Assembly: GCA_037444445.1 (NCBI GenBank)
Contig: JBBIMK010000005.1
Coordinates: 60,001 to 92,000, forward strand
Source: a bacterium
GTDB lineage: Bacteria > UBP7 > UBA6624 > JBBIMK01
Reading direction: 5' to 3'
DNA: 32,000 nucleotides
Made by a program: the position numbers and the translations under genes
The notes under the pieces: generated by a model
What the model saw: the letters and a program-made list of their open reading frames with translations, nothing else
Databases searched by the model: none
Told to the model about the DNA's origin: nothing
Shown: positions 4,074 to 32,000 of the stretch, piece by piece
Layout: the number at the start of each line of letters is the position of its first letter
Numbering within the stretch: position 1 is the first letter of the stretch

Positions 4074-6851
4074 TTATTTTGAAATCTCGGCGGCAGGGGC
4101 AAGGTCCAGGATGCCCCGCACCTTCAACAGGAGGTCTTCGTGGTCAAAAGGCTTCTGCAGGAAGCCCTGAACCCTGGCGCGGAGGGACTGCTGCTCTTCC
4201 GATTCCTGGCTATAACCGGTAATCACCAGAATTTTCATCTCTGGACGGATATGACGAACCACATCCACCACTTCTTCTCCACTCATTTCAGGCATCACGA
4301 GGTCTACTACCATAAGGTCAATGGAGTCCCGGTTCAGTAGGAAGATGTCCACCGCTTCCTTCCCATTCTTCGCCGCGAGGACACGATACCCTTTGGACTG
4401 CAGAATTTCTTTGAGAAGATTGCGAAGGACTGCTTCGTCATCCGCCACGAGGACAGTTTCCGACCCCCCGGGAATTTCCACAGGGGGAGGCACTTTCACT
4501 TCTGCCGGGCGCTCAGCGATAGGGAGATAAATCAGAAAGGTGCTACCTTTTCCCTGTTCACTGCGGACTTCAATGGTGCCGCCATGGTTTTTCACCACGC
4601 CGTAAGCCACGGCAAGCCCCAGCCCCGTTCCACTGGGCTTGGTGCTGAAGAAGGGTTCAAAAATCCGGTCCCTCATCTCTTCGGGTATACCCACCCCAGT
4701 GTCCGAGATAGAAATGCGAAGATAATCTCGCTCCTTTAATCTCAGAGTGCTCCGAAGGCGGTCTATGGGAATGAACCGGGTTTCCACGGTCAGAGTTCCG
4801 CCATCGGGCATGGCATCCCTGGCATTCAAACAGATGTTCAACAGGGATTGTTGAATCTGAGCCTCATCCCCTTCTATGTGAGGGTGAGAAGCATCCAGAT
4901 GCATAACGATGGAGATATTTTTGGGGAAAGTGCGGGTGAGAATAGCCTTCACCTGGTCTAAAACGGTGTGGAGATTAAAGATTTTCACTTCTGCTTTTCT
5001 GCTTCTGGCGAAGGCGAGGAGTTGCTGAGTGAGGTCAGCGCCCTTTCTTGCAGTGGATTCAATGAGTTCCACATGGGAGTAAATTTCCGAGCCCGGGGTG
5101 AGTTTGCTCTTCACCAGGCTGGCGAAGCCGAGGATACCTGCGAGGATATTATTAAAGTCATGGGCCACGCCTCCGGCGAGAGTGCCCAGGCTTTCCATCT
5201 TCTGGGAGTGGAACAACTGCTCTTCCAGGGCTTTTCGCTCGGTGATGTCGCGGAGAATGGCGCGAATCATTCGGGGATGGTCAGGAGTTCCTGATATCAA
5301 CGAGGCGCTCATTATCACATCCATGGACTCGCCGTTGGATTTGACCATCTGGAGTTCCACGCCCTCTATCTTCTGGAAGTTGAGAATTTTCTGCAGAGCG
5401 TCCCGATGGGCGATGCGAGAAGCAGGCGTCAGGAATTTTTCTATCGGCTGACCGATGAGATGCTCTTTCCGATAGCCCAGTTTGCCAGCCTCCGTTATGT
5501 TACAGGAAAGGATAATTCCCCTGTCATCCAGGCTGTGATACATATCGGGGGCATGCTCATACAGGTCCAAATATCGCTGCTCAGATAGAATGGCATTCTG
5601 ATACAGACGCGCTTGAAAAATGGCGGAGGCAACCCCACTGGCGAAAAGCGACATAATTTCTTCATCTTCCACGGAGAAGGGCTTGCCGTCTTCTCGGTCC
5701 GCCACATATAGCAAGCCCAAAACCGTGTCATTATACCGGAGACAAGAACCCAGAAAATGGTTCATCACAGGATGGTGAGGAGGAAAGCCAGTAAACCCTG
5801 GTTGGCTGGAGATGTTTTCCAGCCGTAGAGGAGTGGTACACACTTTCAGAGCCCCAAGAATCCCCCGGTTACGCGGCCTCTGGGTCAAGGATGGCAGGAT
5901 GGTTTCATCTATCCCACTGGTGAGAAACTCTTCCAGTTGCCCCTTGTTGTTAAATATCTGGAGCGCAGAATAGCGAGTGGAGAATAAATCCCGGGTCCTT
6001 TCCACCACCTGTTTTGCCAGTTCTTTCGGGTCCGTGCTGAGAGCATGAAGAATGTCGTAGACTTGAAGGAGGCGAGTAGACTTTCGGGATAGATATTGTA
6101 GGGCACTTTCCAGTTCCGAAATGATTGCCCGGGCTTCTATCGGGGGTCCCAGTTCGTTTCCTACCCGGCTGAGAAAAGACACGGTGGGGAGGGAAAAAAT
6201 ATACCCGGAAGAGACAAAGAAACTCAAGGCACCAATGGGCTTCTCTATTCCTTTCAATGGCACGCTTCCGAACTGAATCAGGTCCTCATGTGCCGGTGCC
6301 TTCCTGCGGGTATCCTGAATGTAATTCTGAACAAAAACAGGCTCCCCGGTCTGAAGACACATCGCTTCCAAACAGGGGTCTTCTCCAAGTTCCTGTAACG
6401 CTTCTGCCTGAGGGGCCGGGAGATTCCAGTGAGCCACCAGCCGGAATCGGTTTTCTTCTTTCTCCCGGAGATGAAGGTAGACTGCAAAAAAATTCAACTC
6501 TTTCTGGAGGGCCTGGCAAATCTTGTTTAATGCCTCGGAAAAGGGAATGGAAGAATAAAGGAAAGATTCCAGATAAGAAAGCAAGGTCCGATGATATAAC
6601 TCTTCCTTCTGGCTTTCCATCATCCGGAATGTATCATTCACAACTACCGTGAGTTCATCCAGGTCCGCCTGTTTTACGGTGGGTAATGGGGAGAAATCCT
6701 TCTTCTCCACTCTGTTTCGGAGAGTGTGAACAAATTCTTTTAAGATTTCCTTCCATTTCTTACGGGTAAAGGAGGAAAGAAGAAAAAATGCCAGGGCAAA
6801 ACCGATAATAAACCCGATAACTACCCCACTATATCCAGTTACAACTGCCAT
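4074..6851 (-). CDS. membrane-anchored GAF/PAS hybrid sensor histidine kinase with C-terminal receiver
   Basis: There is an N-terminal TM helix (VVIGFIIGFALAFFLL), two GAF-like regions and a PAS segment (YEHAPDMYHSLDDRGIILSCN). The H-box is GGVAHDFNNIL, the N box NARDAM, the G boxes DTGVGI and GTGLGLA. The receiver carries VLVADDE...MVVDLVMPEMSG...ILVITGY. Confidence 0.9.
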   Translation of the reverse strand: MAVVTGYSGVVIGFIIGFALAFFLLSSFTRKKWKEILKEFVHTLRNRVEKKDFSPLPTVKQADLDELTVVVNDTFRMMESQKEELYHRTLLSYLESFLYSSIPFSEALNKICQALQKELNFFAVYLHLREKEENRFRLVAHWNLPAPQAEALQELGEDPCLEAMCLQTGEPVFVQNYIQDTRRKAPAHEDLIQFGSVPLKGIEKPIGALSFFVSSGYIFSLPTVSFLSRVGNELGPPIEARAIISELESALQYLSRKSTRLLQVYDILHALSTDPKELAKQVVERTRDLFSTRYSALQIFNNKGQLEEFLTSGIDETILPSLTQRPRNRGILGALKVCTTPLRLENISSQPGFTGFPPHHPVMNHFLGSCLRYNDTVLGLLYVADREDGKPFSVEDEEIMSLFASGVASAIFQARLYQNAILSEQRYLDLYEHAPDMYHSLDDRGIILSCNITEAGKLGYRKEHLIGQPIEKFLTPASRIAHRDALQKILNFQKIEGVELQMVKSNGESMDVIMSASLISGTPDHPRMIRAILRDITERKALEEQLFHSQKMESLGTLAGGVAHDFNNILAGILGFASLVKSKLTPGSEIYSHVELIESTARKGADLTQQLLAFARSRKAEVKIFNLHTVLDQVKAILTRTFPKNISIVMHLDASHPHIEGDEAQIQQSLLNICLNARDAMPDGGTLTVETRFIPIDRLRSTLRLKERDYLRISISDTGVGIPEEMRDRIFEPFFSTKPSGTGLGLAVAYGVVKNHGGTIEVRSEQGKGSTFLIYLPIAERPAEVKVPPPVEIPGGSETVLVADDEAVLRNLLKEILQSKGYRVLAAKNGKEAVDIFLLNRDSIDLMVVDLVMPEMSGEEVVDVVRHIRPEMKILVITGYSQESEEQQSLRARVQGFLQKPFDHEDLLLKVRGILDLAPAAEISK

Positions 6852-17683: not shown

Positions 17684-19399
17684 ATGAAAGGATGGGTAAG
17701 GGTGGGGATGAGTGTGGGAATTTTGCCGATGTGTCTCGTGGCTGGCGCAAAATCTTTCGGGCAGGATGTGGCGCCCCTTAGAGCGACAAGTTTGATGGAA
17801 GAAGCCCTGAGTATGACGGAGAAAATAGAGAATCCCCGGGATAAAGCCTTTGCCCTTCGTCATATCGCCGGTCAAGCGGCAAAAATAGATAAAGCCCTCG
17901 CACTTTCCATATTTGAACGAGCGGCATCGGAGGCGGAGAAAATTGAAGATGCCAGCCAGAGAATCTCAGCTTACCAGGAAATCGTTCTGGACCTGTCGGA
18001 GATGGATATGGACCGGGCTATTGCAATAGTTCAGAAAATTTCAGATGAAACAATGCAGTCCTTTGTCATCCGCGACATCACTCAGCCCCTCACTGAAAGG
18101 GATGTGGAAGAAGCTATGGCGGTGGTGGAGAAGACTCCAGACCCCGGTCCCAAAATCTCTGCTTTGATTTCCATAGCCCAGAAACTGGCGAAGAAGGACC
18201 CGGCGCGTGCTCTAACCCTGGTAGAGAAAATCCGGGACCCCAATCCCAGGTCTATAGCGCTATATGAGATTGTTTCTGAACTTTCTCAAACCCACATTCG
18301 CCTTGCTCTCACGGTGGCGGATTCAATTCCTGACCCTTTTTTCAAAGCAAGTGCCCTCAAAATCATTTCTGCAGAGCAGGCGAAAACCGATGTGGAAGTT
18401 GCGAAGAAAATGGCTGAGGAGATTCCCGAGCCTTATGAAAAAGCAGATGCTTTGAGTCGCATCGGCATAGAGGTCGCAAGGACTGACACGAAGGGCGCCC
18501 TCACCTTTTTTCAGCTCGCCCTGCAAGAGGGGGAAAAAATTTCTGACCCTACCCGAAAGGTTCACCTTCTCCTACCCATAGCCAGAGAGATGGTGAATTG
18601 GGACTCGGCTCGTGCTCTGGACATATTTGACCGTGCCATTCAATCTGCAAAGAGAATCTATGATGAGGGAATGAAGGATAGAAACCTGCAGGAAATCGCT
18701 ATTGCCCTTGCGAGCATAGATTTTGACCGAGCTTTCAAAGTGGCGAATGAAATCTCCAATACCTGGATCCGGGCGGAGACCATTCGTATTCTCATCGTTG
18801 AAATAGCCAAAAAAGATGTCCCCGGCGCCCTGCAAAGGGTAGAAAGTATTGAGGATTCAGACTTTAGAGCCTCCGCCCTGTTGAGTCTCGCCACAGAAGT
18901 GGCAAAAAAGGATATGGGGCTCGCCCTGCAGATTGCAGAGAAAATCGGTTTACCCTTCTGGCTTGCCCGGGCTTATGGGAACATCTCCGTAGAAGTGGCG
19001 CGCTACAATCTTCCTGCGGCTCTGGGTATCGTGCAAAAAATCACCACCACTAACGACAGGGATAAAGCCTATCATCATATCGCTGAACTCCTGGCAAAAA
19101 CGGATATAGAACAGGCTATAAATTTAACGGAAAGAATTCAGGATAACGAGCGGAAGGGCGAAGCCTTGCATACCCTCGCCCTGGGACTGGCAGAAAGGGA
19201 TTTCCAGCGAGCCCTGGGGCTGGTGGAAAAGATGACACCCGACTCCGATGAGAAGCGAAAAGCCTTGCTGGACATCGCATCGGAATTAAGGGGGAAGGAC
19301 CTGAAGCAAAGGGAAAAGTTGCTGGAGCAAGCGGCAGAAATCGCCCGTCAGCGGCAGGATGCCATCGCCCTGGCTGAAGTGGCTGTGTTTTTCCTGTAG
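17684..19399 (+). CDS. exported alpha-helical repeat (alpha-solenoid-like) protein, about 15 tandem 32-residue units
   Basis: A signal-peptide-like N-terminus is present (GMSVGILPMCLVAGA). The recurring unit is roughly (E/Q)KIxDPxxKxxALxxIAxExAKxDxxxALxxx. Anchors fall at residues 46, 85, 117, 149, 181, 213, 245, 284, 323, 355, 387, 419, 451, 483 and 515, giving a period of 32 and occasionally 39. Confidence 0.8.
   Translation: MKGWVRVGMSVGILPMCLVAGAKSFGQDVAPLRATSLMEEALSMTEKIENPRDKAFALRHIAGQAAKIDKALALSIFERAASEAEKIEDASQRISAYQEIVLDLSEMDMDRAIAIVQKISDETMQSFVIRDITQPLTERDVEEAMAVVEKTPDPGPKISALISIAQKLAKKDPARALTLVEKIRDPNPRSIALYEIVSELSQTHIRLALTVADSIPDPFFKASALKIISAEQAKTDVEVAKKMAEEIPEPYEKADALSRIGIEVARTDTKGALTFFQLALQEGEKISDPTRKVHLLLPIAREMVNWDSARALDIFDRAIQSAKRIYDEGMKDRNLQEIAIALASIDFDRAFKVANEISNTWIRAETIRILIVEIAKKDVPGALQRVESIEDSDFRASALLSLATEVAKKDMGLALQIAEKIGLPFWLARAYGNISVEVARYNLPAALGIVQKITTTNDRDKAYHHIAELLAKTDIEQAINLTERIQDNERKGEALHTLALGLAERDFQRALGLVEKMTPDSDEKRKALLDIASELRGKDLKQREKLLEQAAEIARQRQDAIALAEVAVFFL
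17816..19333 (+). repeat. in-frame coding repeat array, about 96-nt period (32 aa)
   Basis: The periodicity was read from the translated protein. The repeats are degenerate at nucleotide level. Confidence 0.7.
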
Positions 19400-19414: not shown

Positions 19415-21391
19415 TTACAAATCCAGTCCCGCGCCCTTTTCGGAAGGCAATTGATTGCTACCTGGCTGGATCCAGAGGATATTATCCCGTGCGAAAGGTT
19501 TCGGGTAAGAATCTTCCCCGCCGCCGGTATCTAAAAAGATGCCAATCGTAGGCATAAAATCCCGAATTAGCCCTACCGGGCCACCCACGCTGGATTTACC
19601 GAGAGTTAAATCTGCGGACACACGGTAAATATCCTTCCCGCTTTTATCCCAGAATAAGCCCATACCGTTAGCATTACCGGCGCCGAGGCTGAGATTGGGG
19701 GCATCATAAACATCATCACCCGCCTCGTCTATCAGGAAACCCACGGTGAAATCGTGCCCGGCGCCTTGAGCCATATTATGGGTGGCGGAATAATGGTCGT
19801 TTCCTCCACCCTCCCAGAGGATGCCAACGCCGAAGTGGGCTCCTGCGCCCTGAACATACCAAACACCTTTATACTCATCATTCCCCGCTTTATCTGCGAG
19901 GATGCCCACGCCATACCAGTACGCCTGCCCCTGGCCGAAGACGCCGCAAGAGTAATGGTCATTTCCATCGCCATCCACGAGAATACCCACACCGCCTGCG
20001 AGGGAATGCCCATCCGTGAAATCTGCCCGCTTCCCCATTCCCATCCCTTGCACAAGACTGCTGTTGTGTTCCTTCGTCTGGGCAGCAGGAAATTTGATGT
20101 CCGAATCGTTGCCCGTGTAAATATCGTCTCCGGCTACATCCACCAGGAGCCCGCTACCGAGAACCCAACCATATCCCTGACCCTGCTGGTAGAGGGCATA
20201 CGAGTCATTTCCCTGCAGGTCCGATAGGACGCCCACACCGAAGAACCCTGCCCCCTGCCCGCCCGCAAAAGCATCGTAGGAATCATCACCGGCTCTATCC
20301 ATCAGGATGCCCGCGCCAAAGAATCCAGCGCCCTGCGTCAAAGACTTGCTCCTGTAAGTATCATTCCCCTGAAGGTCAACCAGATAAGCCCAGCCGAGAA
20401 TGCCGGCGCCGAAGGAAGGAACCTTCGCATCCTCCGAGATATAGGTGTCATTCCCCTGAAGGTCAATCAGGATAGAGATGGGGTTGGCGGGGGAAGAGGA
20501 TGCGCCCGTGGTGTAGGTGTCATTTCCACCCACATCCACAAGGATGAACGGGTTCTTTTCCGAATAGGAATCATCTCCTGCCCCCCGGATGGAAATGGCG
20601 CCCACAGGGGTGGAAGCATGGAAAGAAAATTTCTTATCCGTGTGGAATGAAGAAAGAGATTTCACCACTTCATCCAGGGTGAGAGCGAGGTCAATACCGC
20701 CGGTATTCAGATACAGAAAATCCACCTGGTCGGCGAAAGATTCTACTCGCCGAATGACCTCCTCCTGCACCTGTTCCGAATCAATCCCCACCACATAGGA
20801 AATCGCATCGCCAAAAACTTTCTCCACATCCTTCACTGCGACTTTCTGAAAAGCCAGGTCCCTCCAGGAGAGAACCTCAGCAGAGGTCACAACGAGCAAT
20901 GCCACCTCCTTCGCTACTTCGGGTGGCACCTCCGAAGCGGTTTTTTGAAGCCGCTGGTATTCATTTTTCGGTAATTTTTTTCCGTTTTTCTCATAGAGGA
21001 ATTGAATGGCGTTGGGGAGGACGTCCGTTTCTTTCAGTTTTTTCCGGTAGCCTTCCACAGGGTTGAAAATCAGGCTACGGCGGACAGAAGTTTTCACTTT
21101 TGCCGCCGTGCGCATCAACAGATTCCCTATAGATTCCGAGTTCTTCAGGGTGTCCTCCGCAAAATAAGGCACATAATTTGGAATTTTCAGGGGGCTATCT
21201 ATGAAGACATCAAAGAAATGAAGACGATACTTATCCCCGCCGAAAAAATTCATATCCAGCCGGTCAAACTTCAGCGTCTCTTTCGTGTATCCGATGATGG
21301 GTAAAACCTTCTCCCACGGGTCTTCTTCAGCCACTCCCGAAATCAGCATCATTGCGAGGAGAATACCTGAGAAATTCAGATATTTTTTCAT
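19415..21391 (-). CDS. exported protein with an N-terminal unknown domain and a C-terminal 13-fold G(N/D)DxY repeat (beta-solenoid-like)
   Basis: I chose the ATG at 21391 (MKKYLNFSGILLAMMLISGVA, signal-peptide-like), which is preceded by GGAGGG. The repeat motifs are GDDSY, GNDTY x3, GDDSY, GNDSY, GDDIY, GNDHY, GNDEY, GNDHY, GDDVY, GKDIY and GEDSY. They are spaced about 26-27 residues apart and embedded in QGxGxxGxGxLxDxxG(N/D)DxY. Confidence 0.8.
   Translation of the reverse strand: MKKYLNFSGILLAMMLISGVAEEDPWEKVLPIIGYTKETLKFDRLDMNFFGGDKYRLHFFDVFIDSPLKIPNYVPYFAEDTLKNSESIGNLLMRTAAKVKTSVRRSLIFNPVEGYRKKLKETDVLPNAIQFLYEKNGKKLPKNEYQRLQKTASEVPPEVAKEVALLVVTSAEVLSWRDLAFQKVAVKDVEKVFGDAISYVVGIDSEQVQEEVIRRVESFADQVDFLYLNTGGIDLALTLDEVVKSLSSFHTDKKFSFHASTPVGAISIRGAGDDSYSEKNPFILVDVGGNDTYTTGASSSPANPISILIDLQGNDTYISEDAKVPSFGAGILGWAYLVDLQGNDTYRSKSLTQGAGFFGAGILMDRAGDDSYDAFAGGQGAGFFGVGVLSDLQGNDSYALYQQGQGYGWVLGSGLLVDVAGDDIYTGNDSDIKFPAAQTKEHNSSLVQGMGMGKRADFTDGHSLAGGVGILVDGDGNDHYSCGVFGQGQAYWYGVGILADKAGNDEYKGVWYVQGAGAHFGVGILWEGGGNDHYSATHNMAQGAGHDFTVGFLIDEAGDDVYDAPNLSLGAGNANGMGLFWDKSGKDIYRVSADLTLGKSSVGGPVGLIRDFMPTIGIFLDTGGGEDSYPKPFARDNILWIQPGSNQLPSEKGAGLDL
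19505..20599 (-). repeat. in-frame coding repeat array, about 80-nt period (26-27 aa), glycine-rich
   Basis: The motif tyrosines fall at residues 304, 321, 345, 374, 400, 426, 453, 508, 535, 562, 590, 617 and 657 of the 686-aa ORF-track translation. Confidence 0.7.
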
Positions 21392-21413
21392 CTTTTCCGC
21401 CCTCCTTCTCCCA

Positions 21414-21422
21414 ATCATATCA
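21414..21422 (-). promoter_or_regulatory. extended -10 promoter element TGATATGAT
   Basis: On the minus strand a TGn-TATGAT element lies about 22 nt upstream of the ATG at 21391, followed by GAAGGAGGG as RBS. Confidence 0.35.
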
Positions 21423-21554
21423 CAAGCGGGAAGAAAAATTTTTATCCCATTTCTCTGGCAGGAACAGGGTGTCAACGAGCCCTGGACTCAAAAGGGAGGG
21501 AAGTGCGGAGTCAAGGCTGTCTGTGGGGGGAATCCATTTGAATTTGTGACAGGA

Positions 21555-21622: not shown

Positions 21623-22309
21623 TTACGGTAGTTCCGGGGGGCTTATGCTTTCCTCAGGCTGGGATTCTTTCGGAATTCCGGGTTCTCCAGTTCCGGGACC
21701 TCTCTTCCAATCATCCCGGTTCAGGACGCTGTCGCCATTCCGGTCCAGACGCTCAAAAAGGGTGTTTATACCCGTCTGAAATTCCTCCTTGCTCAAAGCC
21801 CCATCCTTGTTTGTATCCAACCGCGCCATGCGGGAGAAAACAGGAGGAAGGTTGTCTTGCCGCTTTTTCATTCCAGCGATGAATTCTTCTCCGGTAATGG
21901 CGCCATCGTGGTTTGCATCCAGCCTCTGGAATAACTCCTCGCGTCCGGGAAACTCATCCCTGACAATTTTTCCATCGCCATTGGCATCCAGTTTCTTCAG
22001 GTGCTCCAGGATTTTATCCTGCACTTCACCCAGGAAAGCGTTTCGTGCCTTCTGCGCCTCTTCCCTGGTGATGACACCATTTCCGTCAGAGTCCACCTTC
22101 TGGAAAAGGGTCATCCAGCCCGAAGTGAACTCCTCCCGGGAGATGGAACCATCTTTATTGGCATCAAATTTTTGCCACGCCATTCTCCCCGTATGCTTTA
22201 CCGCTTCCTTTTTGAAATGTTCCCTTTTCACCGACCTTCCTTCCGGCTTACCCGCGAGCAGGAAGGGAACCACCAGCACCGCCGTAACTATCAGAATTAT
22301 TTTTTTCAT
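21623..22309 (-). CDS. exported six-EF-hand calcium-binding protein
   Basis: I chose the ATG at 22309 (MKKIILIVTAVLVVPFLLAG), preceded by GGAGGTG. There are six canonical 12-residue loops: DANKDGSISREE, DSDGNGVITREE, DANGDGKIVRDE, DANHDGAITGEE, DTNKDGALSKEE and DRNGDSVLNRDD. Confidence 0.85.
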   Translation of the reverse strand: MKKIILIVTAVLVVPFLLAGKPEGRSVKREHFKKEAVKHTGRMAWQKFDANKDGSISREEFTSGWMTLFQKVDSDGNGVITREEAQKARNAFLGEVQDKILEHLKKLDANGDGKIVRDEFPGREELFQRLDANHDGAITGEEFIAGMKKRQDNLPPVFSRMARLDTNKDGALSKEEFQTGINTLFERLDRNGDSVLNRDDWKRGPGTGEPGIPKESQPEESISPPELP

Positions 22310-22544
22310 TCTTCCATTCACCTCCACTTTCCTATAAACAAGGAAAGGTTCTAAAAGTTTCATCCTGTTTTCAGAGAGGGATGAGTGGGGAATGTCAGAA
22401 GAAAATCTACCGGGAAATCATGCGGGAGGGCTGTGACATCGGGAAATGTTTCTTTTCCTTAAGGGGAGCCCCCACCGATTTTTCAACAGGAACGATGATT
22501 TGTATCACCTGGTCAGGATCTATTGACTCAAAAAGTGTAGACTT

Positions 22545-22589: not shown

Positions 22590-22665
22590 CGGGATGTGGC
22601 TCAGCCTGGCTTAGAGCGCCTGGTTCGGGACCAGGAGGTCGCGGGTTCAAGTCCCGCCGTCCCGA
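22590..22665 (+). tRNA. tRNA-Pro (anticodon CGG)
   Basis: I folded the cloverleaf by hand. The acceptor stem is CGGGATG/CGTCCCG, the D stem GCTC/GAGC, and the anticodon stem CCTGG/CCAGG with loop TTCGGGA. The T arm is GCGGG-TTCAAGT-CCCGC and the discriminator is A. No CCA is encoded. Confidence 0.9.
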
Positions 22666-23636: not shown

Positions 23637-24569
23637 ATGAAGCGATATTCTCCACGGCCCACCCTCACGCTGATGGTTATGACAGAAAAGAGAGAGCCTC
23701 GTTTTTTCCGCCTCTCTTCCATAGTGGTTCGGTGGAGTCTGCTGGCGAGTGGAGTGCTACTGCTGGGGCTAACCCTCTGGATAGCCCGATACTTTTATCT
23801 GGAGAGTGAGGTTCGTAAACTCGCCGGTGTGAAGCAGATGCAGGAGCAGTTTGACACACTGAAGCAGGACCTGTTGGATGAAATGAAGAAATTCCATGCC
23901 CTTCAGGAGAAGGTTAGAAAACTGGAGGACCGGTTGAAGAGCAAGTCCTACGCACCACCACGAGAAGACACAGAAATGCAGGCTTTTCCGGTCCTTGAAG
24001 AGTCTACATTCTCACCTGATGGAATGGAGGATGCTCTGCAGGCATACAAACTTCTAACCTCACGCCGTGAAAAACTGGAAAGTCAATATGTTGCTCTGAA
24101 CGAAGAAGTATCTCGGCGTCTCTCCCTTCTGGAATATATGCCCTCCATTCCTCCCACCTCTACCCTGTCCATTTCCTCCGGCTTCGGGTATAGGCGGAAT
24201 CCCCTGAGTGGCAGGAAGGATTTCCATCCGGGGCTGGACATTCGGGGGGACCCTTCGGATGTGGTTCGTGCTACTGCTTCGGGCACTGTGATTTTTGCGG
24301 GCTGGAAGGGGGGATATGGACGAACCGTAATCATTGACCATGGAAATGGATTTGTTACCTGGTTTGCCCATAACTACAGTTTGACGGTTCGGAGCGGGGA
24401 ACGAGTCAAAAAGGGGCAGGTAATTGCTCGCATCGGCAGCTCTGGCTACACGACAGGACCCCACCTGCACTACGAGGTTCATTACCGGGATAAAATCATA
24501 GACCCTCGCATTGTTCTAAATGTAAATGTGTTTACAGTAGAATCAATCCTGAGCAGGGTCCGGAGGTGA
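23637..24569 (+). CDS. LytM/M23-family metalloendopeptidase with N-terminal TM helix and coiled coil
   Basis: The TM helix is WSLLASGVLLLGLTLWI. A coiled-coil stretch follows (QFDTLKQDLLDEMKKFHALQEKVRKLEDRL). The catalytic motifs HPGLD (HxxxD) and GPHLHYEVH (HxH) are intact. Confidence 0.9.
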   Translation: MKRYSPRPTLTLMVMTEKREPRFFRLSSIVVRWSLLASGVLLLGLTLWIARYFYLESEVRKLAGVKQMQEQFDTLKQDLLDEMKKFHALQEKVRKLEDRLKSKSYAPPREDTEMQAFPVLEESTFSPDGMEDALQAYKLLTSRREKLESQYVALNEEVSRRLSLLEYMPSIPPTSTLSISSGFGYRRNPLSGRKDFHPGLDIRGDPSDVVRATASGTVIFAGWKGGYGRTVIIDHGNGFVTWFAHNYSLTVRSGERVKKGQVIARIGSSGYTTGPHLHYEVHYRDKIIDPRIVLNVNVFTVESILSRVRR

Positions 24570-24576
24570 GGAAAAG

Positions 24577-24969
24577 GTGTTTGGAAAGCGAGAGGCAAAA
24601 GAGGATAAAATCACGACCATCCTGGGGGGGAATAGTTCCTTTGAGGGGACGCTGAGCGACCTTCATTCCTTGCGAGTGGATGGCCGTTTCAACGGTGACA
24701 TTTCCACGGAAGGAGAAATCTTTGTAGGAAAAATGGGATATGTCAAAGGGAACCTCACGGGGAAAAGCGTGTATGTGTATGGACGGGTTCATGGGAATTT
24801 GCAAGCCAAGGAGCGTATAGAAATTATAGAAGGCGGAGTGGTGGAAGGAGATTTACATACAAAACGCCTGGTTATTTATGAGGGCGCCGTGTTTAAGGGA
24901 CACAGTTATATGGAGGAGATGGTGGTTCAACCGATGGCCGAGGGTGCGCGGAGTGCGATGGTTTCTTGA
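24577..24969 (+). CDS. bactofilin (polymer-forming cytoskeletal protein)
   Basis: SSFEGTLSDLHSLRVDGRFNGDISTEGEIFVGKMGYVKGNLTGKSVYVYGRVHGNLQAKERIEIIEGGVVEGDLHTKRLVIYEGAVFKG is the typical bactofilin beta-helical repeat pattern. The GTG start lies 10 nt after GGAGG. Confidence 0.9.
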   Translation: MFGKREAKEDKITTILGGNSSFEGTLSDLHSLRVDGRFNGDISTEGEIFVGKMGYVKGNLTGKSVYVYGRVHGNLQAKERIEIIEGGVVEGDLHTKRLVIYEGAVFKGHSYMEEMVVQPMAEGARSAMVS

Positions 24970-25331
24970 ACCTCCTCCGAGCATGGGTAGTGGTTCTGGG
25001 TGGAACCTTTCTGACATGGCGCTGGTTAAAAGAGGGAATGCATGGGCAACAGGAAACAGCGTGGATGATTGGGTGGGCAATCGGGATAGGTATTCTCGCT
25101 GGTGTGGGGCTTTTGTGGTATTGCAAAACGGCATCCAGGGCGCTTTTCCGTAAACTATTTCTTTTTCTTCTCGGATTTACCATACTATGGGTGATTTTTC
25201 TGGCTACGGGCGCACCCTCTTCCCCCGCCCATAACTTCCTGTTTGAAGTGCTGGAAATGGTCTGGGTGGCCGTGATAGTCCTGCCCATTCTCTGGCAGAG
25301 GAGGGAAAATGGAAATCCTACTGGCACCTGA
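24966..25331 (+). CDS. small polytopic membrane protein (3-4 TM), function unknown
   Basis: Hydrophobic helices include AWMIGWAIGIGILAGVGLLWY, LFLFLLGFTILWVIFLATGA and FEVLEMVWVAVIVLPILW. The start is uncertain. The TTG at 24966 overlaps the bactofilin stop, and an in-frame ATG at 25038 is the alternative. Confidence 0.5.
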   Translation: MNLLRAWVVVLGGTFLTWRWLKEGMHGQQETAWMIGWAIGIGILAGVGLLWYCKTASRALFRKLFLFLLGFTILWVIFLATGAPSSPAHNFLFEVLEMVWVAVIVLPILWQRRENGNPTGT

Positions 25332-26472
25332 CTCGTTTAAGGGCACCCTGTGGGCCTGGGAAGTCAGCCAGGTTGTGGAAGAGGGATTGAGAGATAGCGG
25401 GCTTGACTGCCGCGTGGAGAAACTGCCCATCGCTGACGGAGGAGAAGGAACGGCGGAAGTGCTGAGAAGGGCGTGGGGAGGAATACGGATGACCTCTCAA
25501 GTCAAAGGCCCTCTATACGAGAGAGTGGAAGCATCGTGGGGTCTGAGCCCGGATAGAAAAACGGCCGTCCTGGATATGGCTTCCGCTTCCGGGCTCACTC
25601 TCGTTCCACTGGAACGCAGAAATCCCCTGCTCACGACCACTTATGGAACTGGAGAATTGATTCGGAATGCAATTCAATCGGGAGTGGAAGAGATTTTAGT
25701 GGGAATAGGAGGGAGTGCCACCGTAGATGGGGGTTTGGGCGCTCTCCGGGCACTGGGAGTAAAACTCTACGATGAACAGCGAAATCTTCTGGAGGGGCGA
25801 GGGCAGGACCTGCTTCGTCTCTCCGCGGTGGATGCGGAGGAAGCGGAAGCCATCGTGAGTTCCACCCGGATTGTGGCCATGGTGGATGTCCGGAACCCAC
25901 TGTGCGGCCCGGAAGGGGCGGCTCGGGTCTACGGTCCCCAAAAAGGAGCCTCTCCTGAGGTGGTTGCCCTGCTGGAAGAGGGTCTGGAGAAGTGGGCAGA
26001 ACGGATAGAAGTGGAGCGAGGGATAAGCGTGAAGAACCTGCCCGGAGCGGGTGCGGCCGGTGGATTGCCTGCCGCTCTCGTTGCCTATCTCAATGCAGAA
26101 ATCTGCGCCGGTGCTCCTTTCGTCTTGAAGCGTCTCCAGTTTGATGAAAAAGTAACCGGGAAGGACCTTCTGATTACGGGTGAAGGAATGGTGGATTCTA
26201 AAACTCTGTATGGAAAAGCACCCTACGAAGCCCTCCGAAGGGCAAAACAAAAGGGCATTCCGGTGGTTCTGCTGGCCGGTTCTCTGGGACCAGGCGCAGA
26301 GGAAGTCTACCGGCATGGTGCGGACCTAATCCTCGCTTCGTTCTATGGCAAAACGCCCTTCCAGGGGACCGAACAAGAAGCCCGAGAAAATCTCTACTTT
26401 CTGTCTTACTCTCTGGGTAAGTCATTCGTTCTGGGAAGGAGGCTTCCATCTTATGCCCAGGCCTCTTCGTAA
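25309..26472 (+). CDS. glycerate kinase
   Basis: MEILLAPDSFKGTL...LPIADGGEGT...GIGGSATVDGG...LITGEG is collinear with the GlxK/GarK family. A GGAGGG RBS lies upstream. Confidence 0.9.
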   Translation: MEILLAPDSFKGTLWAWEVSQVVEEGLRDSGLDCRVEKLPIADGGEGTAEVLRRAWGGIRMTSQVKGPLYERVEASWGLSPDRKTAVLDMASASGLTLVPLERRNPLLTTTYGTGELIRNAIQSGVEEILVGIGGSATVDGGLGALRALGVKLYDEQRNLLEGRGQDLLRLSAVDAEEAEAIVSSTRIVAMVDVRNPLCGPEGAARVYGPQKGASPEVVALLEEGLEKWAERIEVERGISVKNLPGAGAAGGLPAALVAYLNAEICAGAPFVLKRLQFDEKVTGKDLLITGEGMVDSKTLYGKAPYEALRRAKQKGIPVVLLAGSLGPGAEEVYRHGADLILASFYGKTPFQGTEQEARENLYFLSYSLGKSFVLGRRLPSYAQASS

Positions 26473-29413
26473 AACTTTCTTCAGCAATCTGGATGCACTG
26501 AAGGAAATCCTGGGTAAGGAAAGCCCTTTAAGTCTCAAGGAAATTATCTCCCGGATCCAGAAAAAATATCTGCTGGATGAAAGTCAGGAGGTGATTAAGA
26601 GTGATTTCGTTCTCCCCGTGCTGAAGAAGCAGGATTACTTTACCTGTGTAGAAGATGAAACAGAAGATGGAAAATGGTCTCTGGAGTATAAAAAACTTCC
26701 GGAGCATCAATGCGCCCTAAAAATCCTTCGTGCAGAAGGAAAGGTCATTCCGTCCAGGGTCTTGAGAGAAAGAATTGCTGAAAGTCTTCGCCTGCCGTTG
26801 AAGCGAGTTTTTTTCTTTCCTGAAAAAGACCCGGAGACATTCAAGAAATTTTCCTTCCCGCTGAAGGTGGAAGAGGGAGAGTGCTGGGTTCCCAGGGACT
26901 GGCGGCTCATCAACGACGAAGCGGTGGAGATTCTGAGAAGGGAAAAGACCCCGCTGAATACCCGGGAAATAGAGGAAAAGGTGCGTGCCCACTATAAACT
27001 GGCTGAGCCGGTTCTCATCTTTGAACCCCGATGGGATGACCGATTTGAGGCGCACAAGAGAAAATGGGTTCTTCGGGAAGAGCGAGAGGAGGTGATAGAG
27101 AAAAAGGCTACTTCCTGGGTTGTGGAAGTCACCCTGAAAGAAAAGGTCATTCAGGCGCTGGAGGAAATTCTTGAGAAAATGAAGCACCGCTCTCAGCCTT
27201 TCTCCCTCAATGATTTAACTCAGTCTTTACTCGGGAAAGAAGCCCAGGGTGTGAAAGATACCCTGTATTTTTCACTTCTGAGAGAATGCCTTCAAGCGAA
27301 AGAAGCCCGGGGCGAACTGGTCCGGGTCAGAGGGCATCGGGAAACCTTCTCGCTTCGTGCTGCCTGGCGGTTGTCGGAAGACATTCCTTCCGCCGTGTTT
27401 ACCCTGCCGATACGAGAGGAGCCTTTTGAGCCGAAACCTTTTGAAATCTTGAGCGATAGGGGTTTGGACCCCGAAATGGTTGCTATCCTAAAAAACCCAT
27501 ACGATTATTTTTACGACGGCGATTATGAGGAGCACCAATTCCCTCCCTCCGGTTTCTGCATCTTCATCACTTATCATGAAATGCTCACGGGAATCGTTGC
27601 TCTTTCAGCCCCTGGAAAAGCCTTTCTAAAAAAGGAATTGGGCTTATTCTTTGAGGGTTCTTCGGGGGAGAGACCCCACTCACCCGAAACCGGTCCCGTG
27701 GCAGAACTGGAGGTGCGTATTCCCGACGGGACAAACCTCAACATTTTTATCCACCTGGGCACGGGGTTGGTCTTCGGCCTGGAAGATTTTATCAGCCGTT
27801 ACTCCGAGCCCGGGGCCTGCTATCGCGTGGAAGTCACAGGCCCTTACCAGTTATCTCTGACACCGGAAGTTACACCCAGTCTATCCGAAATCTCCATCAT
27901 CACTGGAGAAGAAATTGAGCGGCTGGATGAAATGATTCCACGACTACCGGAACTTTCTTTATTCCAGGTGATGGTGGAGATTCTGTCCCAGTACAAAGAG
28001 GGTTTGACCGTGATGGACCTGTACCATCGGGTGCAGTATCTACGGCGAACCAGCCGACGCCACCTTTTCAGCCTCCTGTGCCAGCACTATGCTTTCCAGA
28101 AGAAGGACCAGAAATGGAAAATTATGCCTGAACGAGTTGCCTGGGAGAAGAGGAAATCCCTTCTGGTTCATGCCCGGGAATTTCTCGCCAGCCAGTCTTT
28201 TTCCTTTTCCTTCGCGGGTCCGAAAATCCCACTTCGGGAAAAAGAAGATGGGTGGACGCTTACGCTGAGAGGAATCAAAATCCTGCCCCGACCCCGGGAT
28301 TACATCCTCCTGTTTTCCCGACATGATGAGGCTTATGTGGGAAGTTTCTTTGCTTCCTCCGTTCATCGCATCAACGACGCAGAAGTCATCATAGAGACCC
28401 CTGCGCTGGAGTTGTGGGAAGTGAAAGTCCCCCTGGAGAAGGGCTGGAAAGTGGGATTGGAACGAACTTCTCTGTATCCTCTCCGCACCACCATGCTTTC
28501 AAAACTGCTGGAAACTTTTGACCGTCTTTCCTATGCTTACTGGGTGAAGAAAACCCTGACACGTTCCTTTCGTTTCGTGGAGATGACCCCGGCGCTCACG
28601 CAGAAATCTAAAGATGAAATCCAGGAATTGAAAGGGTATCTGGAAGAGGAACAAAGCCCGTTTCTTGCCCTGAAAGGGATTTCCTGGCAACTTCAGATGA
28701 CGCCAACTTATGAGGAGTTTAACAAAATTCTGGAGGAAAAACATTATTCTCGTGGAGAACGAACCCGTCTGAAACCCTGGGAAATGCAAGAGGCTGTATT
28801 GAGTCTTGAACTTTCTTTCCCTCAGCGTCTTCTCTTCTTCCCTCTGGGGGAGGGAGAGTGGGCCCTGTCCATTCTGGAGGACTTTAAAAAGCAACTGATA
28901 GAAGGGGGCTACGGTGTAGAGGAAGAGGGAGTGAAATTCTTCCTGTCAGGGCAGGAAGAGATTCTGCCCTGGGAAAAGATAGTCTCGGACCGGCGGAGAG
29001 TGGAAAAAATTCGCATGCGAGAAGACGACTTGAATACGGATGAAGCGTTGAATGCTTTACTGGAGCGATATACTCTGGGGGTGGAACCTCGCCGTTCCCT
29101 TTTCCTGATTGCCAGCCTAAGCCTCCGATTCAAGGGCTTCGGCAGCCTTCCGTTGATGAACAAACGGGTGGAAGATTTCCTGCGGGATTCTCCCGGGCCG
29201 GATGAACTGGAAAGGAATGGCTTTGACCGCATAATCGGCGACCTGCGCAATCTATCGCATAAAGAGGTTCGGAATATCCTCACAGGCATACCTTCCTTTC
29301 TTCGTGCCGGTGGGCTTGCGTCCTTCTTCATCCACACAGATGTTAAAGGGCTGGCGGTGGATTCTGAAAAGGTTTTATCCGACGCCGTGAAACTGGTCTT
29401 CCTCCGACGATGA
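26453..29413 (+). CDS. 986-aa orphan protein with several HARE-HTH-like winged-helix modules, function unknown
   Basis: I chose the ATG at 26453, which lies 10 nt after GGAAGGAGG. It overlaps the glycerate kinase end by 20 nt. I see no Walker A or other catalytic motif. A recurring module is described in the findings. Confidence 0.8.
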   Translation: MPRPLRKTFFSNLDALKEILGKESPLSLKEIISRIQKKYLLDESQEVIKSDFVLPVLKKQDYFTCVEDETEDGKWSLEYKKLPEHQCALKILRAEGKVIPSRVLRERIAESLRLPLKRVFFFPEKDPETFKKFSFPLKVEEGECWVPRDWRLINDEAVEILRREKTPLNTREIEEKVRAHYKLAEPVLIFEPRWDDRFEAHKRKWVLREEREEVIEKKATSWVVEVTLKEKVIQALEEILEKMKHRSQPFSLNDLTQSLLGKEAQGVKDTLYFSLLRECLQAKEARGELVRVRGHRETFSLRAAWRLSEDIPSAVFTLPIREEPFEPKPFEILSDRGLDPEMVAILKNPYDYFYDGDYEEHQFPPSGFCIFITYHEMLTGIVALSAPGKAFLKKELGLFFEGSSGERPHSPETGPVAELEVRIPDGTNLNIFIHLGTGLVFGLEDFISRYSEPGACYRVEVTGPYQLSLTPEVTPSLSEISIITGEEIERLDEMIPRLPELSLFQVMVEILSQYKEGLTVMDLYHRVQYLRRTSRRHLFSLLCQHYAFQKKDQKWKIMPERVAWEKRKSLLVHAREFLASQSFSFSFAGPKIPLREKEDGWTLTLRGIKILPRPRDYILLFSRHDEAYVGSFFASSVHRINDAEVIIETPALELWEVKVPLEKGWKVGLERTSLYPLRTTMLSKLLETFDRLSYAYWVKKTLTRSFRFVEMTPALTQKSKDEIQELKGYLEEEQSPFLALKGISWQLQMTPTYEEFNKILEEKHYSRGERTRLKPWEMQEAVLSLELSFPQRLLFFPLGEGEWALSILEDFKKQLIEGGYGVEEEGVKFFLSGQEEILPWEKIVSDRRRVEKIRMREDDLNTDEALNALLERYTLGVEPRRSLFLIASLSLRFKGFGSLPLMNKRVEDFLRDSPGPDELERNGFDRIIGDLRNLSHKEVRNILTGIPSFLRAGGLASFFIHTDVKGLAVDSEKVLSDAVKLVFLRR

Positions 29414-32000
29414 ATCTCTCCCTTTTTCTGATTGTGCTTCTTCTTCTGGTGGCTGTGGGAGTAGGCGGCTTCTGGGCTCATCGCAGGCAAATTCGTCGTT
29501 TGAAGTCTTACTTCCGTTCCAGCCTTTTGAACCTGCAAGAAGGGAAGCCCATCCCGGAAGAGCCTCTCCTGAAAGAGATTCAACCCACCCTGCTCCAATT
29601 ATTCCAGCAAAGCCAGGAACTGGCACAAAACCAACAGAATTTGGAAAGAAAGAACGCTCATCTCCAGGCAAACCAGTTATTTCTGAGGACTCTCCTGGAA
29701 CTCATGAACTGGCAGGGTCCCAGAGCTGAACTTCAGGAGACCCTTGTGCACCTTCTGCTGGATGTTCTTCAAGTGGAGCAAGTGCTGTTCTTTGACTATG
29801 TTCCAAGTATAAAAGGTTTTCATTTTGCATGCCAGGCGGGAAAACCTGGCGTCGTGCCACCTTCTCTTCAATTAAGCCCGGATGAACATCCCTTCTTCCT
29901 GCGGAGAATTTTTACATCCCGAGCCTCCATCGCGCTTCAGCCAGATGACCCTGAAGCGGGTTTCCTTTTATCAGCAGTGAAAACAAATCGGGGGTTCTTG
30001 AGCCTGCTCCGACGGGAAGGCTCCCTCTACGGGCTCCTGCTCATCACTATTACCGCAGAGGATTCTGCTACCCTTCAGAAAATCCAGGAAATGTTTGACG
30101 ACTATACGAAAATCATTACACTCCTGCTGGAAAATCATGCAGTGCGGGAGGAAAGTCAGAGGCATATTAAGGACCTGGAACTGGTTCATCAGATTAATCT
30201 GCAAATCAGTTCCATTCTGGAATTTTCGAATATCCTCACAACCTCAGTTGAACAGGTAGCCCGGGCTCTGGAATCCGATGTGGCTATGATTGAATTAGTG
30301 GAAAACGATGAAATCCATCTCAGGGCTTCTTCAGGAATTTCCCTGGAAGAAGTGAAAGGGATGTCTCGGATGAAAATCGGCGAGAGTTTGTCGGGATGGG
30401 TAGCGGCGGCAGGAACTCCCCTGGCGGTAGAGAACATTGAACTGGACCCCCGGTTCAAATTCAAAGGACAAGCCCGGGCCCTGGGCCTCACTTCCTACTG
30501 TGGTGTGCCGCTGATTATTACGGGAAAACTGATTGGTGTTCTTTCCGTTCTAAACCGGCAACCCCGAATCTATTCGCCCCGAGAAATTGACCTTCTAAAT
30601 ACCATCGCTGGCTCCCTGGGTGTGTTCTTAGAGCAGGCGACTCTCTACCAGCAGCTGCAGGATAAACTCCAGGAATTGGAAAGCGTTCACCAACAACTGA
30701 AAGCCCATGATAAAGAAATCCTTCATCTCAACCAGCAGTTGCAAGCCCTCCAACAATTCCAGCAGGAACTGGTCCACTCTCTCCCCCGGGCACTACTCAA
30801 TCCCTTAACTATCATCAAAGGAACCGCTTCCATCTTCCAGACTGGCTTACAACAGACAGAGAAAGAGAAGGAGATTTTTTTCACCTTTCTGAATACACAG
30901 GTAGATGCTATGGTGGATTTCCTATCTCAACTCTCCGACTTTCTTCTGATTCAATCCGGTCAATTTGCTTTGTATCCAGAAACCCAATCATTAAAGGCTT
31001 TTCTTGAAACTCTTTTCGTGCCGTATCACGCTCTGGGGCAGGCAAAATTTAACACTTTTCAAACGCAAATCTTCGCAGAAGGAGAACAAGCGGTATTTGA
31101 CCCTCGGCGTCTTCGTCTTATCTTCCGAGGCGTCCTTGGAAGAGCGTTTAGTAAGTCTAAAACTGGTGACACCATCTTTTTGCAAGCCCGCGCTGGACCC
31201 CTGGAAAAACTTCCATTCTCGCCACCCGTAAAACTATCTCCGGGAGAGTATTTATGGGTTACACTTCAGATGATTTCCGCAGAAGGGGTTCACAGAAAAC
31301 CCTCGGAAGTGTTTGACACTCTAACGAAAGAGATTGAACCCATTCCCGGCAAGCCGGAAGCATTCGCCCGGGGATTTGAGGATTTCTTGACGCGGTATTT
31401 CATCTCTGCTCATGGTGGAACCTTATGGGTGGAAGATGGAAAGATAGATGAACCGAAAATCCATTTCACTGTTTCCATTTCCCCTACCCCTTATATCACG
31501 ACTGCGGAGAAAGGGTTGGTTCCTTACACCCGCCCACTCGGTATCCGTTCCATCCTCCTTTTCCAGAAAGGATGGGATATTCAGCCCTGGCTGACCCTTC
31601 TCCAGAAGCATGTTCCATCCATTCTACGGGCAGAAAATTCTATGGAAGCACAAGAGATTTTAAAAAAAGAGGAGCCCGATTGCTTGTTTGTTCCCGCAGC
31701 TATTTCGGGCGATATACTTCATCTCCAGGAGGAAATCGTAAAGGGGAGTGGAGTTTCACAGAGTGTGCCCTGTGTCGTGGCTCCCCGGGACCCTCCCACG
31801 ACTCCCGCTTCTACCCCACTCTATCTCCTCGTCTTGCATACTCTACGGGATAGATTTCATCCGCAGCCCGCACACTGGGAAATCGTGTATATAGATACGC
31901 TGGAGGCTCTGCGGAAGGCGACACAAATGGAGATGAAATATCATTCTATATGCCTGTTTGATTTTCCTCTGTTGACGGAAGTATATGAAACACTGGTGAA
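29410..32000 (+). CDS. membrane-anchored double-GAF protein with degenerate histidine-kinase and receiver-like domains (3' end outside the window)
   Basis: This ORF is not in the supplied track because it has no stop within the window. I translated frame 1 from the ATG at 29410, which overlaps the upstream TGA (ATGA), through base 32000 without meeting a stop. The order is MNLSLFLIVLLLLVAVGVGGFW (TM), a coiled coil, two GAF-like regions (the second contains GESLSGWVAAAGTPLAVENIELDPRF...SYCGVPLIITGKLIGVLSV), another coiled coil, then the DHp-like VHSLPRALLNPLTIIKG. Confidence 0.8.
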   Translation, partial: MNLSLFLIVLLLLVAVGVGGFWAHRRQIRRLKSYFRSSLLNLQEGKPIPEEPLLKEIQPTLLQLFQQSQELAQNQQNLERKNAHLQANQLFLRTLLELMNWQGPRAELQETLVHLLLDVLQVEQVLFFDYVPSIKGFHFACQAGKPGVVPPSLQLSPDEHPFFLRRIFTSRASIALQPDDPEAGFLLSAVKTNRGFLSLLRREGSLYGLLLITITAEDSATLQKIQEMFDDYTKIITLLLENHAVREESQRHIKDLELVHQINLQISSILEFSNILTTSVEQVARALESDVAMIELVENDEIHLRASSGISLEEVKGMSRMKIGESLSGWVAAAGTPLAVENIELDPRFKFKGQARALGLTSYCGVPLIITGKLIGVLSVLNRQPRIYSPREIDLLNTIAGSLGVFLEQATLYQQLQDKLQELESVHQQLKAHDKEILHLNQQLQALQQFQQELVHSLPRALLNPLTIIKGTASIFQTGLQQTEKEKEIFFTFLNTQVDAMVDFLSQLSDFLLIQSGQFALYPETQSLKAFLETLFVPYHALGQAKFNTFQTQIFAEGEQAVFDPRRLRLIFRGVLGRAFSKSKTGDTIFLQARAGPLEKLPFSPPVKLSPGEYLWVTLQMISAEGVHRKPSEVFDTLTKEIEPIPGKPEAFARGFEDFLTRYFISAHGGTLWVEDGKIDEPKIHFTVSISPTPYITTAEKGLVPYTRPLGIRSILLFQKGWDIQPWLTLLQKHVPSILRAENSMEAQEILKKEEPDCLFVPAAISGDILHLQEEIVKGSGVSQSVPCVVAPRDPPTTPASTPLYLLVLHTLRDRFHPQPAHWEIVYIDTLEALRKATQMEMKYHSICLFDFPLLTEVYETLV

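Follow-up and report, generated by a model that had tools for sequence, protein, structure and literature searches.

HARE-HTH, PUA-like and N6-adenine-methyltransferase (N6A-methyltransferase) domains form a toolkit by which adenine methylation is predicted to be written and read, and to our knowledge nearly all of its bacterial examples have been discussed in a restriction-modification (R-M) setting. The delta subunit of RNA polymerase (RpoE), with about 170-200 residues, consists of one HARE-HTH domain and a long acidic disordered tail, and this HARE-HTH domain binds the polymerase, not DNA. Prokaryotic HARE-HTH domains occur fused to N6A-methyltransferase domains and to endonucleases of N6A R-M systems (Aravind and Iyer 2012, as summarised in PMC4738411), and for ASCH domains, which recur in fusion with or linked to N6A-methyltransferases, recognition of modified bases has been predicted (PMC4738411). 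In pull-downs, a HARE-HTH domain in purified form showed selective binding to duplex DNA that contained N6-methyladenine (PMC6591016). Here we describe a 986-residue protein (the target) that unites these domain types, encoded in a 32,000-nucleotide stretch of a bacterial contig (JBBIMK010000005.1, positions 60,001 to 92,000), which we call the window.

The target begins with four winged helices of HARE-HTH type and an acidic linker. A beta-grasp-like domain then precedes the fifth winged helix, which carries a basic RRTSRR helix, and the chain continues through a PUA-like domain and a helical region to a methyltransferase fold. Our preferred interpretation, to which we assign a probability of about 50%, is that of a domesticated protein of HARE-HTH/PUA/N6-methyltransferase type, which is predicted to bind or read nucleic acid multivalently and whose methyltransferase domain is non-canonical and probably inactive.

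26453 to 29413, plus strand: complete open reading frame (ORF) of 986 residues plus stop, with an uninterrupted translation

This is a real gene under purifying selection, since its 986-residue frame is open throughout and the ratio of nonsynonymous to synonymous substitution rates (dN/dS) is 0.15 over 982 codons in a comparison with an 86%-identical orthologue (locus L012). The sequence AGGAGG lies at 26437-26442, 10 nucleotides 5' of the ATG, and the start of the gene overlaps the end of the glycerate kinase gene (25309-26472), stop codon included, by 20 nucleotides. Its own stop codon overlaps the downstream start as ATGA (29410-29413), which agrees with the translational coupling proposed in an earlier note on this DNA.

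The central claim of that note, five related HARE-HTH-like winged-helix modules in one 986-residue protein, is upheld by profile comparisons and their controls, by AlphaFold2 (AF2) models and by a match to the delta subunit; the five peptide strings it quoted lie at residues 15-79, 88-150, 157-209, 234-305 and 506-560. We built deep profiles of the modules (M1-M5) from 10-94 homologues and compared them by hhalign, together with the five modules (F1-F5) of a related family of about 610 residues.

26474 to 26698, plus strand: winged-helix module M1, HARE-HTH type, residues 8-82 (Pfam, hhalign to F2, AF2)
26699 to 26908, plus strand: winged-helix module M2, residues 83-152 (hhalign, AF2 topology)
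26909 to 27088, plus strand: winged-helix module M3 with a D-x-RF...W-x-L signature, residues 153-212 (Pfam, PDB profile search)
27116 to 27382, plus strand: winged-helix module M4 with a long first helix, residues 222-310 (hhalign to F4, AF2)
27905 to 28150, plus strand: winged-helix module M5 with the basic helix RRTSRRHLFSLL, residues 485-566 (hhalign, AF2 sub-model)

Scored singly against Pfam HARE-HTH (PF05066), M1 reached 14.9 bits and M3 16.7 bits, and no score was obtained for M2, M4 or M5; M3 also reached 16.8 bits with WH_Rok. The homologues P0014 (29.5 bits) and P0034 (34.6 bits) exceed the HARE-HTH threshold, and F2 is the very stretch that Pfam labels HARE-HTH in P0034 (residues 88-145, 34.6 bits). 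By hhalign, M2 and M3 match each other at 98.6% (E 9e-16). The first three modules match F2 at 92% (M1), 95% (M2) and 81.5% (M3, score 25.7), with M2 and M3 matching F1 at 96% and 96.6%. M4 is connected through F4 (M4-F4 87.5%, F4-F2 94%), and M5 matches F5 at 100% and M1 at 85%, with 63% to F2; the M1-M2 comparison gave 58%. Column-shuffled controls (270 comparisons) did not exceed 9.8% or a score of 15.6, and the highest values from reversed profiles (90 comparisons) were 62% and a score of 25. Given the noise level set by these controls, scores above about 26 are meaningful, and M1-M2, M5-F2 and M3-F2 are borderline. Hidden Markov models of the modules made from four orthologues only gave cross-matches that were in register and, except for M2-M3, not significant. 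By these profile comparisons, all five modules fall into one network that includes a Pfam-positive HARE-HTH module, and the HARE-HTH assignment is supported directly for M1-M3 and indirectly for M4 and M5.

The AF2 model of the target has a mean predicted local distance difference test (pLDDT) score of 80.7, with module blocks mostly between 75 and 94. The topology expected of a winged helix, in which a beta hairpin with a conserved Trp comes after three helices, is present in the models: M1, M2, M4 and M5 show a helix-(strand)-helix-helix-hairpin arrangement, and M3 a shortened form with a reduced third helix. In M1 the helices span residues 12-22, 28-38 and 45-59 and the strands 63-65 and 74-77; in M4 they span 221-242, 252-260 and 271-285, with strands at 289-293 and 304-307. 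A second AF2 model, covering residues 410-680 and based on a 94-sequence alignment (pLDDT 89.2), shows M5 as three helices followed by two strands.

The protein is not the orphan that it had been taken for. A word-indexed search returned three close homologues (95, 46 and 36% identity), and 134 related clusters, defined at 50% identity, emerged from an exhaustive search by profile at E <= 1e-3. Orthologues were found at 95, 46, 36, 29 and 22-23% identity, and full-length ones of 954-979 residues keep the same layout down to 22-23% (P0003, P0006, P0008, P0009). The idea that HARE-HTH otherwise occurs as a single copy fares no better, arrays being normal among the relatives. About 85 clusters of roughly 600-690 residues have a C-terminus that matches target residues 410-566 or so, with the beta-grasp-like domain and M5 kept there as one unit. 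Their layout is that of target residues 1-570: four winged helices and an acidic 'DEGL...DP..EDVG.E' stretch, followed by a beta domain and then by the fifth winged helix, which bears EVNVVRRTxRR. This is the 610-residue family with the same 4+1 layout, whose named members come from Armatimonadota and include a protein of the cultured Capsulimonas corticalis (CCAX7_64890). Unlike the target, these proteins stop after the fifth module, have no PUA-like or methyltransferase-like part and are not encoded beside glycerate kinase. Two of their loci, P0160 (CCAX7_64890; L005, 8001-9902) and P0164 (L006), have no common neighbourhood; one adjoins a MiaB-like radical S-adenosylmethionine (SAM) gene and the other rpsT.

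Two further groups carry parts of the array. In proteins of about 650 residues, an M1-M3-like array is followed by a methyltransferase-like C-terminus. In proteins of about 900 residues, an array homologous to M1-M4 precedes sigma-70 regions 2 and 4 (Halobacillus litoralis WP_160914629.1, which is P0041; P0028, P0035, P0103), so that these sigma-70-family proteins bear a long winged-helix extension. No known family gave a confident match to the whole target, matches being confined to single domains. The whole target searched against PDB sequences yielded nothing by single sequence and noise only by profile, NCBIfam yielded nothing useful, and a scan of GTDB genomes with the orthologue alignment, which used two peptide patterns only and is a weak negative, found no relative.

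Between M4 and the methyltransferase-like part lie M5 and three further elements.

27383 to 27688, plus strand: conserved acidic linker with motifs GLDP and FYDGDYEEHQFPP, residues 311-412 (conservation)
27689 to 27877, plus strand: small beta-beta-alpha-beta-beta domain, beta-grasp-like, residues 413-475 (sub-model, weak Foldseek matches)
28190 to 28486, plus strand: nine-strand all-beta domain, tentatively PUA-like (ASCH/YTH-like), residues 580-678 (sub-model, Foldseek)

The acidic linker has a net charge of -9 and is mostly coil in the AF2 model, with only residues 403-412 below pLDDT 50. It aligns with the 'DEGL...DP..EDVG.E' stretch of the 610-residue family, and its segment FYDGDYEEHQFP (353) keeps 66% mean pair identity among distant orthologues, which places it with FNKILEEKHYSR (756) and RRTSRRHLFSLL (531) as the most conserved short segments of the target. 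Foldseek searches with the sub-model of residues 410-680 returned weak ubiquitin-like matches over 66-90 columns (SUMO, UBX, YtmB; E 0.07-0.2). They also returned the ASCH protein ZmASCH of Zymomonas (5y6b; E 0.02, probability 1.0, TMt about 0.5), some 20 YTH-domain entries (E 0.1-0.2), the YTH-like McrB-N of S. marinus (E 0.16) and, in BFVD, a phage ASCH protein (E 0.03). In this sub-model the beta-beta-alpha-beta-beta domain covers residues 416-471 and the nine-strand domain residues 582-677. As the Foldseek output carries no query coordinates, we infer that the ubiquitin-like matches belong to 416-471 and the PUA-like ones to 582-677; both identities are tentative. Pfam, run on residues 577-739 alone, found no family up to E 5, and the PUA-like domain is the least conserved part of the target: distant orthologues average 13% pair identity there.

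Among solved structures, the closest relative of a module is the N-terminal domain of RNA polymerase delta. In a search of all PDB sequences with the M3 profile, 2krc_A was the top match (E 0.011), aligned end to end and including the D-x-RF...W-x-LR signature, and three more delta entries ranked next. The likeness to RpoE (PDB 2krc, 6zca, 6zfb) lies at the level of the module, since the target has five modules, 986 residues (900 more) and no acidic tail. Mechanistically, the match brings in the alternative of a delta-like, polymerase-associated factor, in which one or more HARE-HTH modules would dock on the polymerase while the acidic linker and the basic helix would modulate nucleic-acid contacts. 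The fusion of homologous arrays to sigma-70 regions 2 and 4, the conserved acidic linker, and the apparently chromosomal, non-defence setting of the 610-residue family at the Armatimonadota loci examined are all consistent with it. On the other hand, delta pairs its single HARE-HTH domain with a long acidic disordered tail, whereas the acidic part of the target is short and internal; the PUA-like and methyltransferase-like domains would be left without a role; and no polymerase genes lie nearby. We consider such a function doubtful, although it would be compatible with the preferred interpretation of a domesticated nucleic-acid binder.

The C-terminal part of the target is predicted to have the fold of an N6-adenine methyltransferase.

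28487 to 28822, plus strand: helical region leading into the methyltransferase fold, residues 679-790 (conservation, collinear alignment with the 650-residue relatives)
28823 to 29410, plus strand: class-I SAM-methyltransferase fold of the HsdM/mad2-like N6-adenine type, residues 791-986 (Foldseek, hhalign)
28829 to 28855, plus strand: motif I remnant FFPLGEGEW, residues 793-801 (alignment with P0047)
29084 to 29086, plus strand: E878, the acid ending strand 2 (motif II), E or D in all orthologues
29222 to 29251, plus strand: motif IV position FDRIIGDLRN, residues 924-933; (D/N)PP(Y/F) is absent

With the full model as query against PDB, all 50 of the top 50 Foldseek matches are class-I SAM-dependent methyltransferases, the best being RlmKL (3v97, E 2e-5), with type I HsdM (2okc, 3ufb), Trm11, AviRa, PrmA, BsaXI, CamA and RsmD among the others. 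A profile of residues 740-986 matched the C-terminal domain of the 650-residue relatives over 237 columns (hhalign 98.5%, E 3e-14). Sequence models recognise some of the relatives: P0047 matches Pfam N6_Mtase (PF02384) at 3.4e-14 and the PADLOC type I methyltransferase at 2.6e-24, and P0020 matches N6_Mtase at 1.1e-8. For the target itself, no methyltransferase model of Pfam, NCBIfam or PADLOC reaches threshold, and Pfam on residues 740-986 alone found no family up to E 5. The earlier note had seen no catalytic or nucleotide-binding motif in the remaining 600 residues or so; this part in fact holds the beta-grasp-like, PUA-like and methyltransferase-fold domains, but the note was right in so far as the methyltransferase motifs are eroded.

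The helical region holds the most conserved stretch of all, QLQ..PT..EF.KILEEK.YSRG, and aligns collinearly with the stretch upstream of motif I in the 650-residue relatives. In motif I, P797, G799 and G801 are invariant among orthologues, and FFPLGEGEW aligns with DPCCGSGGF of P0047; compared with (D/E)-x-x-x-G-x-G, both glycines are kept, the acid is lost and the spacing from P to G is one residue shorter. Motif II, GVEPR with E878, aligns with G(I/V)E.D of the relatives, and motif III is VEDFL. The glycine loop (P-x-G-x-G) and the motif II acid canonically contact SAM. An insertion of about 55 residues (821-873), common to the whole group, carries the conserved basic stretch SDRRR..KIR..ED. 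At motif IV the orthologues read GDLRN, GDLRG, ADGRG, ADFRG or VDLRA, so that D-x-R is present in all of them, and [NDS]PP[YFW] is found nowhere in any orthologue sequence; the 650-residue proteins have GN[FL][TA]F at this position and P0047 has GNPPL. Read together with the structure model, these alignments describe an N6-adenine-methyltransferase fold in which cofactor-side elements are partly kept and the catalytic motif IV is replaced by a conserved D-x-R. The target probably binds nucleic acid rather than methylating it, because the catalytic motif is lost, and the methyltransferase-like domain has probably lost catalysis.

The same features can be read as those of a working methyltransferase whose motif IV is unconventional (D-x-R), aimed at DNA, RNA or protein by the winged helices and the PUA-like barrel. 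In the AF2 model all strands of the fold, 1 to 7, are present; the glycine loop and the acids of motifs II and III are kept, conservation of D930 and R932 extends to orthologues of 22% identity, and the relatives offer a graded motif IV series from NPPL through N[FL][TA]F to DLRN. Yet the target and its orthologues share the lack of [NDS]PP[YFW], with no aromatic residue at the base-stacking position, and the lost motif I Asp, the shortened P-G spacing and the silence of the Pfam, NCBIfam and PADLOC models all argue against catalysis. We regard an active enzyme as unlikely, though it would be compatible with the domesticated-fusion interpretation.

Among described systems, type I HsdM and the mad2 gamma class share with the target the fold, the motif order I-II-III-IV and the helical region in front. 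They differ in that the target has lost the catalytic motif, reaches no sequence model's threshold and has no HsdS or HsdR. The 650-residue proteins (P0011, P0013, P0015, P0017, P0019, P0022), P0047 and P0020 have an M1-M3-like array and a methyltransferase-like domain bearing the same insertion. Unlike the target, all these relatives are without M4, the beta-grasp/M5 unit and the PUA-like domain, and their motif IV, N[FL][TA]F or NPPL, is nearer to the canonical form. One of them, P0011 (666 residues; L013, 7001-9001), combines an M1-M3-like array with a mad2/HsdM-like methyltransferase domain whose motif IV is GNLAF, and lies among housekeeping genes (GAPDH, RapZ, NadC, CoaX, TatD, DksA-like, RNase HII). 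It comes from sample SRR22388033, as does the orthologue P0002, and may be a paralogue in the lineage of P0002.

The R-M fusions are a close architectural parallel: as in the target, HARE-HTH stands N-terminal to an N6A-methyltransferase fold, and a PUA-like (ASCH-type) domain is a recurrent partner. Unlike them, the target has five HARE-HTH-type modules where one or few would be expected, an extra beta-grasp-like domain and DLRN at motif IV; its loci contain no R-M partner and its place beside glycerate kinase among housekeeping genes is stable. The target unites HARE-HTH, ASCH-like and N6A-methyltransferase types, with a five-fold winged-helix array and without the catalytic motif, in a conserved non-defence place. 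The domesticated-fusion interpretation is the most economical one. Under it, the protein would descend from HARE-HTH plus N6A-methyltransferase fusions of R-M contexts that were later recruited to a chromosomal role. The winged helices would bind DNA, possibly RNA or RNA polymerase, multivalently, and the PUA-like barrel with the methyltransferase-like pocket would read a base or cofactor without methylating an amino group. In its favour are two conserved basic elements, the M5 helix and SDRRR..KIR..ED in the methyltransferase insertion. The gene and its constraint, the five modules, the wider families, the methyltransferase fold with its motif states and the gene neighbourhoods are computed findings; the reading of SAM or a base, an R-M-type origin and a connection with glycerate kinase or with RNA polymerase are, like nucleic-acid binding and the loss of catalysis, inferences.

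Several observations weigh against this interpretation. The HARE-HTH score of the whole target, 23.8 bits, is a sum of weak stretches and stays below the Pfam gathering cut-off of 25.9, and M4 and M5 connect to HARE-HTH solely through intermediate profiles (F4 and M1, respectively). The PUA-like matches are weak (E 0.02-0.2) and the domain is poorly conserved. DNA binding by the modules is not a given, because the HARE-HTH domain of delta binds polymerase. The strictly conserved D930 and R932 could signal another catalytic activity rather than none. Finally, the adjacency to glycerate kinase is left unexplained by it and could reflect function or inherited gene order.

In a more specific version, the target would be chromosomal and would read SAM, adenine methylation or some other modification of bases. 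The five HARE-HTH modules and the PUA-like barrel would scan nucleic acid, the D-x-R pocket would capture a flipped base or the cofactor without catalysis, and the resulting state would be passed to transcription. The transcriptional output is suggested by the delta match and by the fusion of this array to sigma-70 regions. We hold this version to be distinctly unlikely.

The target lies in a conserved string of genes, with overlapping neighbours on both sides.

25309 to 26472, plus strand: glycerate kinase gene, upstream and overlapping (Pfam Gly_kinase, PF02595, 3e-127)
29410 to 32000, plus strand: transmembrane-GAF-HisKA-like gene with ATGA overlap, continuing beyond the window (GAF 1.7e-17, HisKA only 0.11)

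In the window and at the loci of the 86, 46 and 36% orthologues, the order is unknown, M23 peptidase, bactofilin, small membrane protein, glycerate kinase, target, transmembrane-GAF protein, PlsY and GpsA, all co-directional and mostly overlapping. The locus of the 29% orthologue reads glycerate kinase, target, an unknown protein of 768 residues and PlsY. At the 22-23% loci, which are marine, glycerate kinase is kept together with an unknown protein of about 300 residues upstream of it; the downstream gene encodes an amidase or an amino-acid permease, and bactofilin, GAF and M23 genes are absent from the locus. Co-occurrence with the GAF protein and/or bactofilin, put forward earlier as a check, thus fails in the most distant orthologues, and the invariant neighbour is glycerate kinase, directly upstream of every full-length orthologue seen (L001-L004, L008-L012) with an overlap that is usually 4-20 nucleotides. 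The target is presumably co-expressed with it. The kinase was considered as a special subfamily and rejected as such: ordinary glycerate kinases from Atribacterota, Poribacteria and Clostridia share about 47% identity with it.

The gene string gives rise to the idea that the target is a partner of bactofilin, the M23 peptidase and the GAF sensor in the control of cell shape or envelope. The co-directional, overlapping string from the M23 peptidase to GpsA, maintained in the three closer orthologues, would fit. This partnership is nevertheless improbable: at the 22-23% loci glycerate kinase alone stays, the sequence upstream at the 29% locus does not reach far enough to reveal M23 or bactofilin, the 768-residue product encoded downstream there has no GAF match on record, and the domain content of the target is typical of nucleic-acid proteins.

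Very improbable, too, is a modification or reader subunit of an R-M or other anti-phage system. HARE-HTH, ASCH-like and HsdM/mad2-like methyltransferase domains are typical of such systems (PMC4738411), and the relatives P0047, P0020 and P0011 match the MTase_I or mad2 models of PADLOC. The target itself, however, matches no PADLOC model, no nuclease, specificity or ATPase partner or other defence gene was found in any orthologue locus seen, the position among housekeeping genes is stable over deep divergence, and the catalytic motif is lost.

Several neighbours deserve separate mention. The protein encoded downstream of the target combines a transmembrane segment and a coiled coil with a GAF domain; its HisKA-like region is weak (E 0.11). 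Its orthologues at L001 and L012 have only GAF domains in Pfam and that at L004 has HisKA and HATPase_c; from these matches, the kinase part looks degenerate in this lineage. Upstream, at 23637-24969 on the plus strand, the gene of an M23 peptidase, which has a coiled coil at its N-terminus, is directly followed by those of bactofilin and a membrane protein of about 120 residues, an arrangement kept in the closer orthologue loci; we take the peptidase-bactofilin pair to resemble bactofilin-M23 morphogenesis modules. A tRNA-Pro (CGG) at 22590-22665 on the plus strand, shortly 5' of the operon of the target, is the sole Rfam/ARAGORN match in the window.

At 21623-22363 on the minus strand lies the gene of a secreted-looking protein of 246 residues made of repeated EF-hand-like loops (DANKDGSI, DSDGNGVI, DANGDGKI, DANHDGAI, DTNKDGAL, DRNGDSVL), whose counterpart at L012 matches EF-hand_7. 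Two long ORFs, at 17684-19399 (plus strand, 571 residues) and 19415-21475 (minus strand, 686 residues), have no Pfam match at E <= 1e-5; the second was considered as a paralogue of the 650-residue type and rejected, as it has no similarity to the target. A second large sensor, a hybrid histidine kinase of 925 residues with GAF-GAF-PAS-HisKA-HATPase_c-receiver architecture, is encoded at 4074-6851 on the minus strand. The remaining genes of the window are of housekeeping type, among them SHMT, alanine racemase, GltX and NAD(P)HX repair.

The target is a new architectural variant of known domain types within a sizeable uncharacterised superfamily. The adenine-methylation toolkit here has lost its catalytic motif and sits in a stable housekeeping operon under purifying selection. 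Should the target be merely a structural DNA binder, it would be a tidy case of a methyltransferase pseudoenzyme. If the reader version were true, an R-M methyltransferase would have given rise to a bacterial 'reader' that became a fixed core gene of an unclassified bacterial lineage. Should the target prove to read modified DNA or to couple SAM to transcription, a function would also be gained for more than 100 uncharacterised protein clusters, and the target would offer an accessible bacterial model for non-defence methylation readers.

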